Source: Escherichia phage slur14. From it: a DNA stretch of 64,000 bases. Positions 3,539-27,488 of this stretch are shown here, in pieces. Location: the sequence record NC_028448.1, one strand, 5' to 3'. A program made the translations under genes and the position numbers. The number at the start of each line of letters is the position of its first letter. The first letter of the stretch is position 1. The notes beneath the pieces are model-generated. The model was not told the origin of the DNA. It saw nothing but the letters and a program-made list of their open reading frames with translations, and searched no databases.

Positions 3539-3800
3539 TTAGACTTTCCTTTTTACCACTGAGATAGGCGTTATATACTTTAAGAGTGCCATAATAAATT
3601 CGGTCATTTTCATCTAAAGACTCGCGGTCAAGTTCATCGAGCTCCTTTTTATCCATGACTATAACATTATTACAGTAAAGAAACCCAAGTTTTTCGTGAC
3701 CAAACTCAAATTTATTACAGTACACAATATTAGCGTGATGATTTCCGTGCAGTTTAATCTCTTTTATGTCGGAATCACCGATATTCATACAATAAATCAT
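3471..3800 (-). CDS. hypothetical protein (109 aa)
   Basis: ORF track; AAGGAAAAATT-ATG SD; hairpin upstream. Confidence 0.5.
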   Translation of the reverse strand: MIYCMNIGDSDIKEIKLHGNHHANIVYCNKFEFGHEKLGFLYCNNVIVMDKKELDELDRESLDENDRIYYGTLKVYNAYLSGKKESLNAENESGFTETISDSDIYPIEQ

Positions 3801-3811
3801 AATTTTTCCTT

Positions 3812-3840
3812 AAAACAAAAGGGCCGAAGCCCTTATTTTA
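3812..3840 (-). terminator. intrinsic terminator / RNA-stabilising hairpin
   Basis: Minus strand AAGGGC-UUCG-GCCCUU followed by UUUUGUUUU. Confidence 0.6.
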
Positions 3841-4032
3841 TTTGAATTGTGCAATTCTTTTCTCTAGACATTCAGCATAAGATTTCATTGAGATGAACTG
3901 TGAAAGTAGCAGTTCTTGCTCAACTGCACTAACTGTTAGAAACTTTGCGCTTTCTAAAAATTTGCTCAGTGCATTAATTTTGAGCATTAATTGATCGTAT
4001 TCTTCTTTTACTCGTGCTTGATAACCTAACAT
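3838..4032 (-). CDS. hypothetical protein (64 aa)
   Basis: ORF track; AAGGAAAATT SD. Confidence 0.5.
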   Translation of the reverse strand: MLGYQARVKEEYDQLMLKINALSKFLESAKFLTVSAVEQELLLSQFISMKSYAECLEKRIAQFK

Positions 4033-4046
4033 AATTTTCCTTAGTT

Positions 4047-4062
4047 AAGGGCCGAAGCCCTT
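4047..4062 (-). terminator. tetraloop hairpin at rIIB 3' end
   Basis: AAGGGCCGAAGCCCTT overlapping rIIB stop; no strong U-run. Confidence 0.4.
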
Positions 4063-4999
4063 ATTTAAATTGTTCAGTAACGTCTTCAACTACTTCGTAT
4101 TGGCAGGTACGCATTTTAGCGTCGTTGTAATCAATCGGAATTGATACTACATCGCGAGGATGTACTTTAACTTTTACGACTCGGCTGGTTGAACTGCCAA
4201 AGTGACGAATATAAGATTTAGAACACACATGCAGACCACGAGAACAAGTTTGTGTATCATCGTCATTCACACGAGTACGTGGCATTTTAACTACTTTACC
4301 AGGACTGTTATCAAAGGTATTTGAGTGACAGTCAAAGTAATTACTACGAACTACTTTCCAAGCATAGAAGTAACCATCTTCTGTAATTTCAATATCATTT
4401 GCTACCAAGAAATCAAAGAGTCGAGATACCGCTTTTTGGCTTGGGTTTTCCAACAGATTTTCCAAGAACGGAAAATAAAATTCAAAGTTTTCACCTTTTT
4501 CCATCGAGTCAAGAATACGATCAACCAAACCAGACCGTAATTCGATATTTTGATAGAACAAGCTTCCGCCTTCAATTCGAACATCGCCGGAAATATATTT
4601 TTCAACAGCGCGACGAACATTAATTTTTTGTGCCGCTTCTTCCAACTTATCTGCTACAAGCAGATTAAGAATTTCCTGGAAGTTTGAATGAGTATTAGGA
4701 GTTGCGTTATAAGTTACACCGTCAACGGTAATTGAAATGAATTTTTTAGATGCATTCCAAATAATGTCAGATTTAGCAACTGGAGCAATAGCTGCATCGC
4801 TATTAACTTTAACTGTAATATCACCGCTAATAGTAACTTTAGAGCGTTTAGCTTCTTCAGCATTTTTCAAAACACGACGGATTGTGTCAACCGATACACC
4901 TTGCCAATCAGCCAATTCCTGCTGAGTGTAATTACCACTTGAATACAGCTTAACAATTTCAGCTTGTTCGTTTTTGGTCAGGCATTTAATATTGTACAT
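4061..4999 (-). CDS. rIIB: rIIB rapid-lysis protein
   Basis: 312 aa, same length and N-terminus (MYNIKCLTKNEQAEIVKLYSSGNYTQQELADWQG) as T4 rIIB from memory. Confidence 0.95.
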   Translation of the reverse strand: MYNIKCLTKNEQAEIVKLYSSGNYTQQELADWQGVSVDTIRRVLKNAEEAKRSKVTISGDITVKVNSDAAIAPVAKSDIIWNASKKFISITVDGVTYNATPNTHSNFQEILNLLVADKLEEAAQKINVRRAVEKYISGDVRIEGGSLFYQNIELRSGLVDRILDSMEKGENFEFYFPFLENLLENPSQKAVSRLFDFLVANDIEITEDGYFYAWKVVRSNYFDCHSNTFDNSPGKVVKMPRTRVNDDDTQTCSRGLHVCSKSYIRHFGSSTSRVVKVKVHPRDVVSIPIDYNDAKMRTCQYEVVEDVTEQFK

Positions 5000-21391: not shown

Positions 21392-22731
<1,340 letters not shown>

Positions 22732-22740
22732 TATATCATC

Positions 22741-22786
22741 CTCAGCAATTTATTTTATAATACCATAACAAGCTGAGAAAGTAAAC
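22741..22786 (-). promoter_or_regulatory. early promoter cassette
   Basis: GTTTAC ... TGGTATTATAAA with flanking inverted repeat CTCAGC/GCTGAG. Confidence 0.55.
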
Positions 22787-22830
22787 AAATTTATGAAATT
22801 TGTGATAAATATTAATTTAAAGGAGGACAT

Positions 22831-23031
22831 ATGGTACAAAAATTAATGGCACTTGTTAATGCCATAAAAGGTAATAAAAAACGTATAGCTTTTACTATTT
22901 CTGCTATGGTAGGAATTTTACTCTGGAACTTTATTTTATCACCAATTGCAATTGCGCATGGTGTTAATATTCCAGTAGTTACTCTTGATACATTCGTAGA
23001 TCTAGCATTTGCTTTAGTTGGGTTAATTTAA
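22831..23031 (+). CDS. small hydrophobic membrane protein (66 aa), plus strand
   Basis: AAAGGAGG SD 4 nt before ATG; two predicted TM segments; convergent with gene 61. Confidence 0.4.
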   Translation: MVQKLMALVNAIKGNKKRIAFTISAMVGILLWNFILSPIAIAHGVNIPVVTLDTFVDLAFALVGLI

Positions 23032-24056
23032 ATCTTGGCATATTTAGATAGCCGCATTTTAGCCATCAACCCCTGGGCAATATTATTTTTCATATATTCC
23101 ATAATTTGTTCAGGGGTTGCACCTTCCTTTCTAATCATATCATTAACATCTTTTGATTTCCAGGGAGATTTATCCCAAAACATAACCCTTTCTCCTGCAT
23201 CAACTAATTTAGTCATTCGTTTAATAGTGTCAGGGTGACGAGGTTCATTATCTAAAACCCACACTCGTCTATCTTTAAATGGAACAACTTCTAGGTCTAA
23301 TTGACCACCCGTAATAGCTATACCATTTTCAATAAAAAGTGAATCTATAGGTCCTTCTAGAACATATACATCACCATCTTTAACTCGTTCGACTCCATAG
23401 ATTTTTGTTGCTTCAGGATAAGCTTTGATGGTGATATATTTTTGAGGAGCATCTTTCTTTAATGCACGTCCTTGAAACGACTCAGCTTTTCCATTAGCAT
23501 TATAAATTGGAATAACAAGACGAGGCTCAGAAATTTCCTTTTTATATGTTCCCGGTGCTATGCTATTAACCAATTTAGGCCATTCGGTTGTAAACCAAAG
23601 ATATTTCCATTTATCCTTTGGAATACAACGAGCTTTTACATATTTTATAATTGGATGGTCTTCCGCCAGTTTATCTAATCTAACACATGACGGAAGAGAT
23701 TTAATTATTTTCTTCTCAGGTTGTTTAGGAAGTTCTTTAGGTTTTTCTACTGGACGACTTTTACCTTTTTCTTTTCTTATTTCAAAGATATACTCACGAT
23801 ATAAATCAGGTTCAAACTCCTTTAAATATATTCCGATTGGTGCATGATAGTTACAGTTATAACAATGAATATTTCCTTCATTATTATCACCATAATACCA
23901 TCCACGGGCTTTATTTTGGTCGGTTTTTGAATCTCCGCAAACAGGACATCTAAACCGTAATTTAAAAGTTGAACTATTATTTACTTGTGTGAATTTAGGT
24001 AAATGAGCTAATGCACGGTATGCAAACTCATTATCAATCCAAGGTATTGATGACAT
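23028..24056 (-). CDS. 61: DNA primase gp61
   Basis: 342 aa; zinc-binding CPVCGDS...CYNC; same length as T4 gp61. Confidence 0.95.
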   Translation of the reverse strand: MSSIPWIDNEFAYRALAHLPKFTQVNNSSTFKLRFRCPVCGDSKTDQNKARGWYYGDNNEGNIHCYNCNYHAPIGIYLKEFEPDLYREYIFEIRKEKGKSRPVEKPKELPKQPEKKIIKSLPSCVRLDKLAEDHPIIKYVKARCIPKDKWKYLWFTTEWPKLVNSIAPGTYKKEISEPRLVIPIYNANGKAESFQGRALKKDAPQKYITIKAYPEATKIYGVERVKDGDVYVLEGPIDSLFIENGIAITGGQLDLEVVPFKDRRVWVLDNEPRHPDTIKRMTKLVDAGERVMFWDKSPWKSKDVNDMIRKEGATPEQIMEYMKNNIAQGLMAKMRLSKYAKI

Positions 24057-24058
24057 TT

Positions 24059-24223
24059 TTACTCTTCTTTTTCTTTAGATTCCTCTTTTTTCTTTTTAGG
24101 AATCTGTTCAGGACCTTTATTTACTACAGCACCTGATGTTGTTCCAGTAGAGATATTTTCAGGATTACCACCTGAATCTCCAGCAACCATATCTTCTTTA
24201 ATAAATTCTTTATATGTTTTCAT
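24059..24223 (-). CDS. small acidic/lysine-rich protein (54 aa)
   Basis: Manual translation MKTYKEFIKEDMVAGDSGGNPENISTG...; below track cutoff. Confidence 0.4.
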   Translation of the reverse strand: MKTYKEFIKEDMVAGDSGGNPENISTGTTSGAVVNKGPEQIPKKKKEESKEKEE

Positions 24224-24269
24224 ATTAACCTCTATTCATAAAAGCATTAAAAATTTGGTCATCAATAGA
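24221..24269 (-). repeat. 49-nt direct repeat, copy A (gene junction)
   Basis: catattaaCctctattcataaaagcattaaaaatttggtcatcaataga; 1 mismatch to copy B. Confidence 0.8.
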
Positions 24270-24581
24270 TGGAATAGCAACCTTTTCGGCATCATTTAGC
24301 AAATCATTAATTTCATCAGATATCATAACACATGTGCCTTTATTTCCTGTAATTGTTACTGCACAATTACGAACGTTTTCTTTATCAAATTTTAGGTTAA
24401 TATTTTCGTAGTGAAAATCCTTTAATGCCGAATATATCTTTAAAATGAAATTGTCTTTTACTACAATAAACCCAACTTCACTATTAAAACGTGGTTCATG
24501 GAAACTGTAATAAACCTTTTCATCTATGAAATCGTATGAAATTTTTTCCATTTTTAAATATGAAAATTCAGAACTATACAT
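24225..24581 (-). CDS. hypothetical protein (118 aa); C-terminal 14 aa duplicated from next ORF
   Basis: Ends SIDDQIFNAFMNRG, encoded by a 49-nt direct repeat. Confidence 0.5.
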   Translation of the reverse strand: MYSSEFSYLKMEKISYDFIDEKVYYSFHEPRFNSEVGFIVVKDNFILKIYSALKDFHYENINLKFDKENVRNCAVTITGNKGTCVMISDEINDLLNDAEKVAIPSIDDQIFNAFMNRG

Positions 24582-24627
24582 ATTAATCTCTATTCATAAA
24601 AGCATTAAAAATTTGGTCATCAATAGA
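24579..24627 (-). repeat. 49-nt direct repeat, copy B (gene junction)
   Basis: catattaaTctctattcataaaagcattaaaaatttggtcatcaataga. Confidence 0.8.
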
Positions 24628-25209
24628 AACATTTACTTTAGACTGTTTTTCAGATGGCAATTCATATCCACATATTACAATTTTATGATCAATATCAAAA
24701 TACACAGAAGCAATATGATTAATGATATTTTCAGTGAAGTCTAAATCGACATCAATATCTTTTTGACCAAAGCCCAAAGGATAAATAATGCGAGTAATTC
24801 GATTATCTTTAACAAAGATTCCACCGACATACTCTGTACTGCGTTTAAAGTCTACACGCCGACGAAATGAAAAATATTCAGGCTCTTTATGAGCTCGGCT
24901 CATAGGACACAACGAGTAACTAGAATAAGAGATGTCAAATCCTACGCCTTCGATATGAGCCAAAGTGTCATGATTAAACCAATTATAATCGTACGCCAAA
25001 TCCATTAGATTATAATATGTAAAAGGCACCGGATTAACATCATTAGTCACAAGCATGTAATTAGCAACTGCTATAATTTCATTATTTTTAACGAATACAA
25101 ACCGTGATTGATGCGAATGACCTGGACCCGCGTTTTCACGATTAATGATATAACACTGGGCACCTTTATATTTGTATGTATCTTTGCACTTGTGCATTTG
25201 ATAGAGCAT
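24583..25209 (-). CDS. hypothetical protein (208 aa)
   Basis: ORF track; ends SIDDQIFNAFMNRD. Confidence 0.55.
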   Translation of the reverse strand: MLYQMHKCKDTYKYKGAQCYIINRENAGPGHSHQSRFVFVKNNEIIAVANYMLVTNDVNPVPFTYYNLMDLAYDYNWFNHDTLAHIEGVGFDISYSSYSLCPMSRAHKEPEYFSFRRRVDFKRSTEYVGGIFVKDNRITRIIYPLGFGQKDIDVDLDFTENIINHIASVYFDIDHKIVICGYELPSEKQSKVNVSIDDQIFNAFMNRD

Positions 25210-25502
25210 TATTCACCTACCACTTCAGCGATGATATTTTTATTATTAAAGTTTTTATCGCAATACAGAACATAATTATACTGCATTACACCACCAGACT
25301 TAAGCTGTTTTTGCACTTCAGCTTTCATTTCAGGACGATCGCGCTCAACGATATTCATAATATCTGCTTCAATTTGGGTTTCAACTTCAGTCTGATCAGC
25401 AGTCATAGACCATTCGCACAAATCTTTATCATAACCTGCCATAGCAGGCTGAGCAGCACAAGAAGCTAAAGCAAAAATTGTAGCAAAGATAAATTTTTTC
25501 AT
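25209..25502 (-). CDS. sp: Spackle periplasmic superinfection-exclusion protein
   Basis: 97 aa; signal peptide MKKFIFATIFALASCAAQPAMA; matches T4 Sp from memory. Confidence 0.9.
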   Translation of the reverse strand: MKKFIFATIFALASCAAQPAMAGYDKDLCEWSMTADQTEVETQIEADIMNIVERDRPEMKAEVQKQLKSGGVMQYNYVLYCDKNFNNKNIIAEVVGE

Positions 25503-25510
25503 GATAATCT

Positions 25511-25558
25511 CCTCAGTAGTTTATGTTTATAGTATCTCAATTTCCAACAAAAGTAAAC
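25511..25558 (-). promoter_or_regulatory. early promoter upstream of sp
   Basis: GTTTAC ... GATACTATAAAC on minus strand. Confidence 0.5.
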
Positions 25559-25560
25559 AG

Positions 25561-25818
25561 CTATTTTAAAACTTTTGCATAATCACATGTTACAAACTGT
25601 TTCTCTAGCTTGACGATTTTACGAAAGTATCTTTTGCATTGGCGAATCTGCCGCTTCGTAGGGCGAACAGCAAACTTAATAAATTCCACTCGACCAAATG
25701 GAGGACTTTCTTCTGCTGGAATATCTAATACCAATTCCCACGTATCTGCAATAAGTGCTTTGAATTGTGTATTTTTCCTGACGTTATACGGAGTAGGTTT
25801 AAATAAAACAATATGCAT
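25561..25818 (-). CDS. hypothetical protein (85 aa)
   Basis: Track ORF trimmed to ATG with GAGGATAAT SD abutting dmd stop. Confidence 0.5.
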   Translation of the reverse strand: MHIVLFKPTPYNVRKNTQFKALIADTWELVLDIPAEESPPFGRVEFIKFAVRPTKRQIRQCKRYFRKIVKLEKQFVTCDYAKVLK

Positions 25819-25819
25819 A

Positions 25820-26002
25820 TTATCCTCGGCAATCCACTTCACATACTTTCTTGTCATCAATGAAAGCTTTAACTAATGCTTTATTAACTTCAGCATACTG
25901 AGTAGTAGCCCATTGAACGTCATCTTTCATCATTGTGATTTCTTTAGTAAACATGCTTTCATTCTTAAACCACCCCATAAAAACTACCTTTACCAATTCC
26001 AT
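25820..26002 (-). CDS. dmd: Dmd antitoxin (inhibitor of host RnlA/LsoA)
   Basis: 60 aa MELVKVVFMGWFKNESMFTKEITMMKDD...; matches T4 Dmd from memory. Confidence 0.9.
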   Translation of the reverse strand: MELVKVVFMGWFKNESMFTKEITMMKDDVQWATTQYAEVNKALVKAFIDDKKVCEVDCRG

Positions 26003-26023
26003 AACAATCTCCTCATTTAACCA

Positions 26024-26061
26024 ACAAGACTACTATACCATAGTCTTGTCAGCTTGTAAAC
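26024..26061 (-). promoter_or_regulatory. early promoter cassette upstream of dmd
   Basis: GTTTAC, stem CAAGACTA/TAGTCTTG around TGGTATAGT. Confidence 0.6.
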
Positions 26062-27488
26062 TAAAATTTTAATTCATTCGCCAAAGCATCTAACTGAGCT
26101 CGAGTCGATTCGTTTCTTTGATAGCGATTCTGTTCAGCCTGAATCTGTTGTGAACCTGCTACTTCGTTCACTTCAGTTGGAGTAGAATCTTGTTCAATTT
26201 CTACCCATTTCTGATTTCCTTTTTGAACACCCATCAAAAACTTATTCCATTTATTCTTATCACCATATCGTGATTTGATTTGCTTAATGAGTTGTTGTTC
26301 AGCAGCTGCTAACTCCTCGGTTTCAATGACCGCAAGCATAAAATCAGCTGTCGCTGGAAGACCAGCAGATTCTGCGATATCACTCATGTTAACATCGGAA
26401 GAGTCCCAAGCTTGTTTACCAACCTGTGCTGCAGTCCAAAGAACAGTTTCAGTTTCAACAGCCAGAGCACGCAATTCTTCTGCGATGGCTTTAACAGTTG
26501 TGTAACTATTTTCTGAATAAACTCTGATGCGGCAAGATTTACAAATACCTAGATAGTCGACAATAATGATTGTTGGAACAAAATTTTTCTTGAGCTTCAA
26601 TTCATTCAAGAGAGACCTGAATGTGTTAGCATCTGCCCCACCAGTAGGATACTGTTTAACGATTAAACGACCGAGAGTAGATTTCTCACGCCATTTTTCC
26701 ATTTTTCCTTTATACTCAGCGTAAGAAATATGCCCATCATCAATGTCATCAAGAGAAACATCAAGCATATTAGCATCAATACGCTTAGCACAGACTTCTT
26801 CTGCCATTTCCATGGAGATGTAAAGAACATTATGTCCGAGCTGCAAATAATCTGCTGCCAATGAACACAATCCTAATGACTTACCAACGTTAACGCCAGC
26901 CATTAAAACGTTCAGTGTTCCAGTCTCAGCTCCGCCTTTAGTAATTTTGTTCAGAATTCTGAGTTTAAATGGAACCTTACGAGCTTTATTCATATAAGAT
27001 AGCCAACGTGCTTCGTAGTCATCCATCCAATCATGACCAACGTAACTATCAAATGAAATTGATAATGCTTGGCGCATGATGTCAGGAATAGCACCAACAT
27101 CCGGCATTTTCTTATTTCGTTTTTCCGGAGGAAGTTCAGCATTAGTTTGAATTTCGATTATTTTAGACGTAGCATTAAACATCGCCCTTTGCTGAACATA
27201 TTTTTCTGTTTCTTTTATTAACCAACTGTGGTCTTCCGGAGAATCAGCCAGTTTTGAAATAAGTGTTTTTACACCAGAATATTCTGTTTCAGTAAATGAA
27301 CTATTTTCTAATGCAACATTTAACGCATTAATAGATGGAACGCTATGATACTCATTGACATGAGATTTAATTAATTTGAATGTATTTTTAGCTGGACCAC
27401 TTTCAAAATATTCTGAATCCATATATGGCCAAACTTTTGAAAAATAAGCTTGATCAAATATGAGATGAGAAAGAATAATTTCTACCAC
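26061..27488 (-). CDS. 41: replicative DNA helicase gp41
   Basis: 475 aa; DnaB-like Walker A GVNVGKS. Confidence 0.95.
   Translation of the reverse strand: MVEIILSHLIFDQAYFSKVWPYMDSEYFESGPAKNTFKLIKSHVNEYHSVPSINALNVALENSSFTETEYSGVKTLISKLADSPEDHSWLIKETEKYVQQRAMFNATSKIIEIQTNAELPPEKRNKKMPDVGAIPDIMRQALSISFDSYVGHDWMDDYEARWLSYMNKARKVPFKLRILNKITKGGAETGTLNVLMAGVNVGKSLGLCSLAADYLQLGHNVLYISMEMAEEVCAKRIDANMLDVSLDDIDDGHISYAEYKGKMEKWREKSTLGRLIVKQYPTGGADANTFRSLLNELKLKKNFVPTIIIVDYLGICKSCRIRVYSENSYTTVKAIAEELRALAVETETVLWTAAQVGKQAWDSSDVNMSDIAESAGLPATADFMLAVIETEELAAAEQQLIKQIKSRYGDKNKWNKFLMGVQKGNQKWVEIEQDSTPTEVNEVAGSQQIQAEQNRYQRNESTRAQLDALANELKF

Follow-up and report, generated by a model that had tools for sequence, protein, structure and literature searches.

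Two tandem AdfA-family genes with a common 3' end, and probable recombination at that end, in the anti-toxin island of T4-like phages

The part of T4-like phage genomes that carries adfA (gene 61.2), tifA (61.4) and dmd has been described as an 'anti-TA island' (TA, toxin-antitoxin; PMC9391042). AdfA, the anti-DarT factor A encoded by T4 gene 61.2, was reported by LeRoux et al. 2022 (as cited in PMC11825919 and PMC9391042). The substitution R164H enables RB69 AdfA to bind and neutralize the DarT1 toxin; T4 AdfA itself binds DarT1 weakly, and the authors suggest another DarT homolog as its target (PMC11825919). Phage T2, described as naturally without an adfA homolog, forms no plaques on DarTG1 cells once adfN is deleted (PMC11825919). 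T4 recombines at homologies of 6-10 base pairs (bp), and dmd-tifA has been amplified and deleted in this way in the laboratory (PMC9391042). Gene 61.1 is only a conserved open reading frame (ORF) in Nolan 2006. Here we analyze the same locus in a 64,000-nucleotide (nt) stretch of the Escherichia phage slur14 (NC_028448.1; 'the window' means this whole stretch), in which adfA and an adjacent ORF of 118 amino acids (aa) end in one and the same 49-nt direct repeat.

In our reading, this repeat is the 3' end that two genes of the AdfA family, arranged in tandem and diverged long ago, have in common; we give this account, structural and evolutionary, a probability of roughly 70%. Sequence comparison strongly indicates recombination at the junction of 61.1 and 61.2; the mechanism of this recombination and its direction are inferred from natural variation. 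The locus appears to be one of old paralogy plus continuing repeat-mediated exchange.

Among described systems, the PeSL mobile regulatory cassettes (promoter-early plus stem-loop) of T4-type phages were reportedly introduced by Arbiol et al. 2010. PeSLs are intergenic early promoters with a stem-loop, and have been proposed as mediators of modular shuffling by recombination. They resemble our repeat in lying at gene boundaries in plastic regions of T4-type genomes; the repeat described here differs in that it is coding, and has neither a significant hairpin nor a match to a sigma-70 early promoter. The dmd-tifA amplification (Srikant et al. 2022, PMC9391042) shares with this locus the neighborhood, the counter-defence genes, and a segment lying between direct repeats whose loss leaves one copy and whose gain gives tandems. 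Its repeats, however, are fortuitous microhomologies of 6-10 bp recombining in laboratory evolution, whereas the repeat here is a conserved coding tail of 49 nt, the events are read from natural variation, and all products are in frame with the start of the downstream gene intact.

A repeat search of positions 22000-27000 returned the 49-nt pair as the longest repeat by far: 48 of 49 bases are alike, the starts lie 358 nt apart, and the sole mismatch is the 9th base (C/T). With up to 3 mismatches allowed, the 49-mer has two copies only in the whole 64-kb window, and 0 of 100 dinucleotide-preserving shuffles of the window contained a match. Read on the minus strand, both copies are TCT ATT GAT GAC CAA ATT TTT AAT GCT TTT ATG AAT AGA G[G/A]T TAA T ATG: the 14 last codons of one gene (SIDDQIFNAFMNR[G/D]) and its stop, then a single base and the start codon ATG of the gene that follows. 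The first-pass annotation of this stretch had described the repeat, its coordinates, its variable base and its anatomy in the same terms, along with the ORFs of 118 and 208 aa between gene 61 and sp, and all of this is confirmed; its statement that anti-defence factors map to the T4 61.1-61.4 region agrees with the published island (PMC9391042).

The two copies differ in what they offer the gene that follows. Copy 1 holds GAGG, the Shine-Dalgarno sequence of 61.1, and is the same, base for base, as the one copy in T4, T2 and RB51. Copy 2 differs by one base (G to A); the Gly codon thereby becomes Asp, and GAGG becomes GAGA, which weakens the ribosome-binding site (RBS) ahead of the 118-aa gene. 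This Asp variant of the adfA tail occurs in 38 phage records only, followed in every one of the matches listed by the start of the 118-aa gene, and looks like a point mutation younger than the last homogenization of the tails. Six tandem loci from Tequatrovirus and Gaprivervirus-like phages (the window, RB51, VR7, L013, L020 and L025; L and P numbers are our labels for loci and proteins) have a weakened RBS, GAGA or AAGG, before the 118/119-aa gene, and in all six the last tail copy retains GAGG. The weakened site may turn down translation of the short gene.

The evidence that the two genes belong to one family begins with their profile matches. The 208-aa protein matches the whole of PF23813 (451.9 bits, expectation value (E) 3e-136) and is AdfA: it is 97% identical to T4 gp61.2, has the full-length architecture of two halves (~208-216 aa), and carries at the position equal to RB69 residue R164 the 'neutralizing' His (His165). 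The 118-aa protein matches the same profile at positions 113-211 with 34.3 bits, above the gathering threshold of 27; since tail-only matches to the profile already reach 16-22 bits, its body adds only ~12 bits. It corresponds to one AdfA half plus the tail, and so does not have the two-half architecture. Its relatives P0001-P0005 have precomputed PF23813.2 matches. In the RB51 record the gene RB32ORF033c (a name taken from RB32), 98% identical to the window ORF, is annotated 'similar to gp61.2', an annotation silent on the identical DNA tail, on the four-state polymorphism described below and on recombination.

Direct comparison points the same way. BLASTP aligns the 118-aa and 208-aa proteins over 102 columns at 35% identity. 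With the 14-residue tails removed the match has an E of 0.002 (6 of 1000 shuffles scored equally well) and pairs residues 21-77 of the 118-aa protein with AdfA 109-169, which is the register expected from the tail. The motif VG.I.VKDN.I is common to both proteins and lies at the center of the profile-profile match; it is also found in the N-terminal half of AdfA, and the sequence hints that AdfA may be an internal duplication of one domain. AlphaFold models of both proteins have the same order of elements (beta-meander, helix, strand, tail helix), the AF2 model of the 118-aa protein having a pLDDT (predicted local distance difference test score) of 83.8. When that model was searched with Foldseek against viral models (BFVD), the best matches outside its own family were AdfA proteins and a family of 145-aa proteins, at E 1e-4 to 8e-4 and template-modeling (TM) scores of 0.5-0.56; from the AdfA model, the sole non-AdfA match below E 0.02 was the 118-aa family (E 2.7e-4).

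In their DNA, the two gene bodies in the window are 43% identical overall, and at third codon positions 30% identical against 34% expected from composition, which is chance level; over the 13 aligned codons of the tail, 39 of 39 bases agree. The 118-aa family is narrow, since a HMMER scan of 1.84 billion representative proteins yielded only its own family (3 clusters) and one spurious long protein. Sequence searches of the PDB returned noise only for the 118-aa protein (E ~0.9) and zero matches for AdfA, and NCBIfam has a family for neither. One member of the 118-aa family, P0008 (119 aa), carries as its NCBI source label a Limosilactobacillus reuteri metagenome-assembled genome; it almost certainly stems from T4-like phage contamination of the bin. 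The lines of evidence for body homology given above (BLASTP without tails, the profile-profile match, the models and the Foldseek matches) are each weak or aided by the tail; taken together they make it quite probable that the bodies of the 118-aa protein and AdfA are homologous.

The tail itself is a signature that reaches well beyond the window. Its motif, [S/A/T][I/V/T]DDQIFNAFM[N/K][R/K][G/D], is followed by the stop and nearly always then by TATG (AATG in RB69-type adfA). It ends AdfA of Tequatrovirus and Mosigvirus (RB69, G2285), the 117-119-aa family of Tequatrovirus and of Gaprivervirus-like VR7, L020 and L025, the 145-aa family of VR7-like and JS98-like phages, and a 120-aa protein of a 173-kb contig, P0016. 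This last protein, with a different body ending TTDDQIFNAFMNRG, has a precomputed PF23813 match, and suggests that there are yet more tail-bearing subfamilies. Between genera the tails differ at 5-7 of 45 positions, at synonymous sites, which argues for selection on the peptide; and because several families and genera have the same amino acids in other synonymous codons, the tail is an old family feature. In both AF2 models it is a C-terminal helix on a low-confidence linker to the core, and the predicted helix fits an interaction motif.

These observations bear on the strongest alternative, under which a recent insertion or duplication placed an unrelated ORF at the 61.1/61.2 junction, and this ORF took the last 14 codons of adfA as a grafted module. 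The first-pass annotation leaned this way, seeing an extra or chimeric gene with a 'borrowed' tail. Such an event would explain why homology breaks off sharply at the first tail codon, why body-only sequence similarity is marginal, why the 119-aa protein of VR7 and the 145-aa family match the AdfA profile through the tail only, and why different bodies (the 145-aa family, P0016) bear the same tail. Against it stands the tailed 118-aa family of another genus (Gaprivervirus-like), 46-51% identical to the window ORF and with synonymous tail codons of its own, so that any grafting would be ancient; copies at least 80% identical are found in ~290 records. The tail also ends orthologous 117-119-aa genes, RB69 AdfA, and the 145-aa and 120-aa proteins. 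The body of the 118-aa protein further resembles a diverged AdfA domain, with 34.3 bits against a threshold of 27, similarity in the right register relative to the tail, and reciprocal best structural matches to AdfA at TM ~0.5. We regard recent insertion as improbable, and likewise doubt that the 118-aa ORF is a newly made chimera.

For tandem AdfA-family genes exchanging at their common end, the main evidence lies in which phages carry which gene. Counts were taken among ~500 GenBank Tequatrovirus-like records: 152 have the tandem (the junction of adfA, tail and 118-aa gene), 141 the 118-aa gene alone (T2-type, with an sp-to-118-aa junction), and ~27-36 neither gene (RB3-type). The adfA-only state (T4-type) accounts for ~170-180 records, a figure obtained from an evenly spaced sample and by difference; a direct count of its junction (231) was set aside because pieces of some tandem genomes had apparently been joined. 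In the window and in slur03, the interval between sp and 61.1 holds adfA (tail NRD) and the 118-aa gene (tail NRG). T4 has adfA only, its interval exactly 358 bp shorter and its single 49-mer the same as window copy 1; T2 has 12 nt and then the 118-aa gene only; RB3 has just 12 nt (TTAGAGGCTAAT); and RB51 and L013 have a divergent adfA allele with a 118/119-aa gene. The earlier suggestion of an extra gene gained by recombination stands to this extent: the ORF is absent from T4 as exactly one 358-bp unit, and the junction is where recombination appears to act.

The edges of these differences coincide with the repeat. T4, without the variable segment, keeps exactly one copy of the direct repeats that bound it. 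In Gaprivervirus-like phages, what sets L020 (145-aa and 119-aa genes) apart from L021 (145-aa gene only) is exactly one 361-nt cassette, bounded by the same tails. The sp-side junctions in T2 and RB3, TAGAGG[T/C]TA[G/A]TATG, are like the last 14 nt of the tail (TAGAGGTTAATATG), so that every cassette is bounded by direct repeats (49 nt, and ~14 nt on the sp side). Flanks are mosaic: in identity matrices of 11 loci, arrangement state is not congruent with flank relatedness. The downstream flank of Elenatom is 99.4-99.5% identical to those of the adfA-only loci L011 and L012, and its upstream flank 99.8% identical to that of the tandem locus L013; the upstream flanks of T2, L022 (adfA only) and the window (both genes) are at least 98% identical to one another. 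In Elenatom (L007, 1168-1790) adfA is split into two ORFs, a 98-aa N-terminal and a 64-aa C-terminal one, and looks pseudogenized beside an intact 119-aa gene.

A mechanism can be proposed from these features. Selection on the protein would keep the 14-residue tail, whose end supplies the RBS and start codon of the next gene. As every cassette ends in the same ~45-50 nt, the very active homologous recombination of T4 could bring together tails that are not in register, or tails of two co-infecting phages; and since T4 recombines at 6-10 bp, a 49-nt identity should recombine efficiently. If the two tails paired unequally, the 118-aa cassette would be deleted or duplicated in frame, and such exchange would spare both the remaining ORF and the start of the downstream gene. 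It would also homogenize the tail DNA within a genome, leaving 48/49 identity beside gene bodies at chance level. The sp-side repeat of 13-15 nt (TAGAGGyTArTATG) would account for the T2 and RB3 arrangements; were an adfA tail to pair with this repeat in a T2-type genome, the two reciprocal outcomes would be the tandem arrangement and the empty site.

Within single genomes, the two tails are often much more alike than tails from different genera: they differ at 1 of 45 positions in the window, 2 in L013, 3 in RB51, 3 in L025 and 7 in VR7. The first-pass annotation had held that one two-gene arrangement with diverged tails in all relatives would argue for old paralogy; the four presence/absence states are instead all common, and the tails, diverged in VR7, are nearly identical in Tequatrovirus. 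L025 has CAG and TTC in both its tails, each of which in VR7 is confined to one tail, a pattern typical of what episodic gene conversion would give.

That the copies are alike through purifying selection on overlapping signals alone, with presence and absence due to unrelated deletions, is an explanation we rate below that of recent insertion. It draws on the conservation of the tail amino acids across four genera, on the crowding of GAGG, TAA and ATG into the last 15 nt, and on the fit of both copies to an enriched promoter-like pattern (TGCTT...TAnnnT) that the record of phage Lutter annotates as a promoter. Yet the 5' part of the tail (TCT ATT GAT GAC CAA ATT TTT) lies outside these signals and is still the same in both window copies, even though its synonymous sites drift freely between genera (RB69, VR7, L014, L015). 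In RB69 and VR7 the tails no longer have an intact promoter-like motif, indel edges fall exactly at the repeat in two genera, and the L025 variants shared by both tails are each found in one VR7 copy only. An assembly artefact of this sequence has a negligible chance of being the answer, for 152 independent records from different groups (among them RB18, RB27, RB32/RB51, slur and BASEL phages) carry the junction, and the case for it comes down to Yersinia phage phiD1, which has four tail copies and runs of N. In that phage (L004, NC_027353, 1501-2459) the four copies accompany two 118-aa genes and a 33-aa fragment; they are unreliable because the Ns fall in exactly that stretch, and the extra copies are probably a repeat-induced assembly problem, not a true triplication.

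Several results weigh against common descent of the two genes with exchange at the tail. With the tails trimmed, hhalign probabilities reached just 10-26% (P 0.001-0.003); the AdfA model, at a pLDDT of 71.7, is no better than moderate; and the Foldseek score, which combines 3Di and amino-acid terms, is raised by the identical tail, with high root-mean-square deviations. The 145-aa family has no sequence similarity outside the tail. The VR7 tails, 7/45 apart, mean that homogenization is not universal. In no record among the matches listed is the Asp tail joined to 61.1, so that the window repeat bears no direct crossover footprint. On the functional side, T2, which has the 118-aa gene only, fails without adfN, and this suggests that the 118-aa protein does not neutralize the tested DarT1 at native expression levels and is no block to that toxin.

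What the 118-aa protein does can be framed by its likeness to AdfA. It shares with AdfA a profile match above the Pfam threshold, the tail, the VG.I.VKDN.I motif and the slot between sp and 61.1, and AdfA is its nearest structural neighbor; it differs in covering the C-terminal half of the profile only, with about half of the score coming from the tail. The helix that bears the specificity residue of AdfA is kept, with an invariant Cys73 in place of the specificity-determining His or Arg, so that the His at the RB69-164 position is not present. From its sequence it is conceivable, if doubtful, that the protein binds and inhibits a toxin, with a specificity unlike that of AdfA; by analogy with T4 AdfA, it may target another DarT homolog. 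More speculative still is the idea of the tail as a plug-and-play junction, at which any toxin-binding domain ending in the tail could be swapped, stacked or dropped during co-infection with its neighbors unharmed, the 118-aa 'mini-AdfA' and the 145-aa family neutralizing toxins, DarT variants or others, against which full-length AdfA does not act. If true, this would explain why one cassette or more is retained in ~94% of Tequatrovirus-like records.

The repeat may hold a further signal. A pattern scan for MotA-type middle promoters (TGCTT near -30 and TAnnnT at -10, spaced 11-13 bp) found a match (TGCTTTTATGAATAGAGGTTAATAT) in each copy; this loose pattern is enriched in the window (32 found, 15 expected). 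The same 27 nt were annotated 'promoter' in both tails by the depositors of Lutter. The MotA-like box in the tails departs from consensus at its last base, and the motif is lost in RB69 and VR7. The tail is possibly a middle promoter, a candidate to be taken as a lead only. An RNA hairpin (TCTATT...AATAGA) was rejected: its folding energy equals that of shuffled sequences (z 0.04 and -0.26), and covariation is absent in RB69 and VR7. Between positions 23900 and 26100, sigma-70 promoter matches occur at chance level, with none in the repeat, and no terminators were found.

The window belongs to Tequatrovirus, and the region is 100% identical to that of Escherichia phages slur03, slur08 and vB_Eco_BGP and 97-99% identical to that of many other Tequatroviruses. 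The minus-strand order is sp, adfA, the 118-aa ORF, 61.1 and the primase gene 61 (Table 1). Mobility driven by homing endonucleases was considered and dropped, as the stretch of the window from gene 61 to gene 41 has no seg, mob or HNH gene.

Table 1. Features of the locus in the window
Feature	Position	Strand	Remarks
dam	21392-22171	-	
Extra 186-aa ORF	22171-22731	-	
Primase gene 61	23028-24056	-	
Gene 61.1, 54 aa	24059..24223	-	Conserved downstream flank; start codon within repeat copy 1
Repeat copy 1	24221..24269	-	Last 14 codons (SIDDQIFNAFMNRG) and stop of 118-aa ORF, one base, 61.1 ATG
Middle-promoter-like sequence, copy 1	24222..24246	-	Pattern scan
118-aa ORF (RB32ORF033c / phrog_4122)	24225..24581	-	Probable short single-domain AdfA relative
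Repeat copy 2	24579..24627	-	End of adfA (last 14 codons, SIDDQIFNAFMNRD, with stop), one base, 118-aa ORF ATG
Middle-promoter-like sequence, copy 2	24580..24604	-	Pattern scan
adfA, 208 aa	24583..25209	-	Anti-DarT factor A; PF23813
sp (spackle)	25209..25502	-	Conserved upstream flank; stop overlaps adfA ATG (TAATG)
61.4, dmd, gene 41	beyond sp	-	

Some features around the locus deserve mention in their own right. The 186-aa ORF (phrog_8706) lies directly upstream of dam, its stop overlapping the dam start; it is missing from T4 (a gap of ~310 bp there only) and found in the IMG/VR locus L012. Its matches to the DpnII (GATC) and BanI restriction endonuclease families are weak and fall below threshold (E 0.0045 and 0.009); it could be a remnant or divergent endonuclease paired with the Dam methylase. 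Between it and gene 61 lies a hydrophobic ORF of 66 aa on the plus strand (22831-23031), annotated as 'dam.1' or RB32ORF030w in RB3, RB51 and T2. In VR7-like and JS98-like phages a gene for a 73-aa DUF7279 protein comes after the tail-bearing cassette (L006, 2159-2380; L014-L021 and L025, ~3729-4317); tifA (61.4) of the window also matches Pfam DUF7279, so the island has more than one DUF7279 member.

Both the island and the gene were already known, as was the resemblance of the gene to 61.2, and repeat-mediated indels are standard T4 biology. The literature searched gave no account of a common tail across AdfA-like families, of the four-state polymorphism with exact repeat boundaries, or of a short family member in 'adfA-less' phages like T2. 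In kind the result is nothing unusual, and its novelty is a modest one of detail: a probable recombination site in a known anti-defence island, not a new kind of element. It lies within the best-studied phage anti-toxin island (dmd, tifA, adfA), and current understanding is not overturned. For annotation, the 118-aa, 145-aa and 120-aa tail-bearing ORFs belong with AdfA and should not stand as unrelated hypotheticals. T2 and ~140 other sequenced phages described or treated as lacking adfA probably carry a short AdfA-family gene in the same slot, which makes the 118-aa gene a candidate counter-defence factor. The common tail would offer a simple mechanism for the natural shuffling of counter-defence genes in T-even phages, one that complements the microhomology-driven amplification seen next door in the laboratory.

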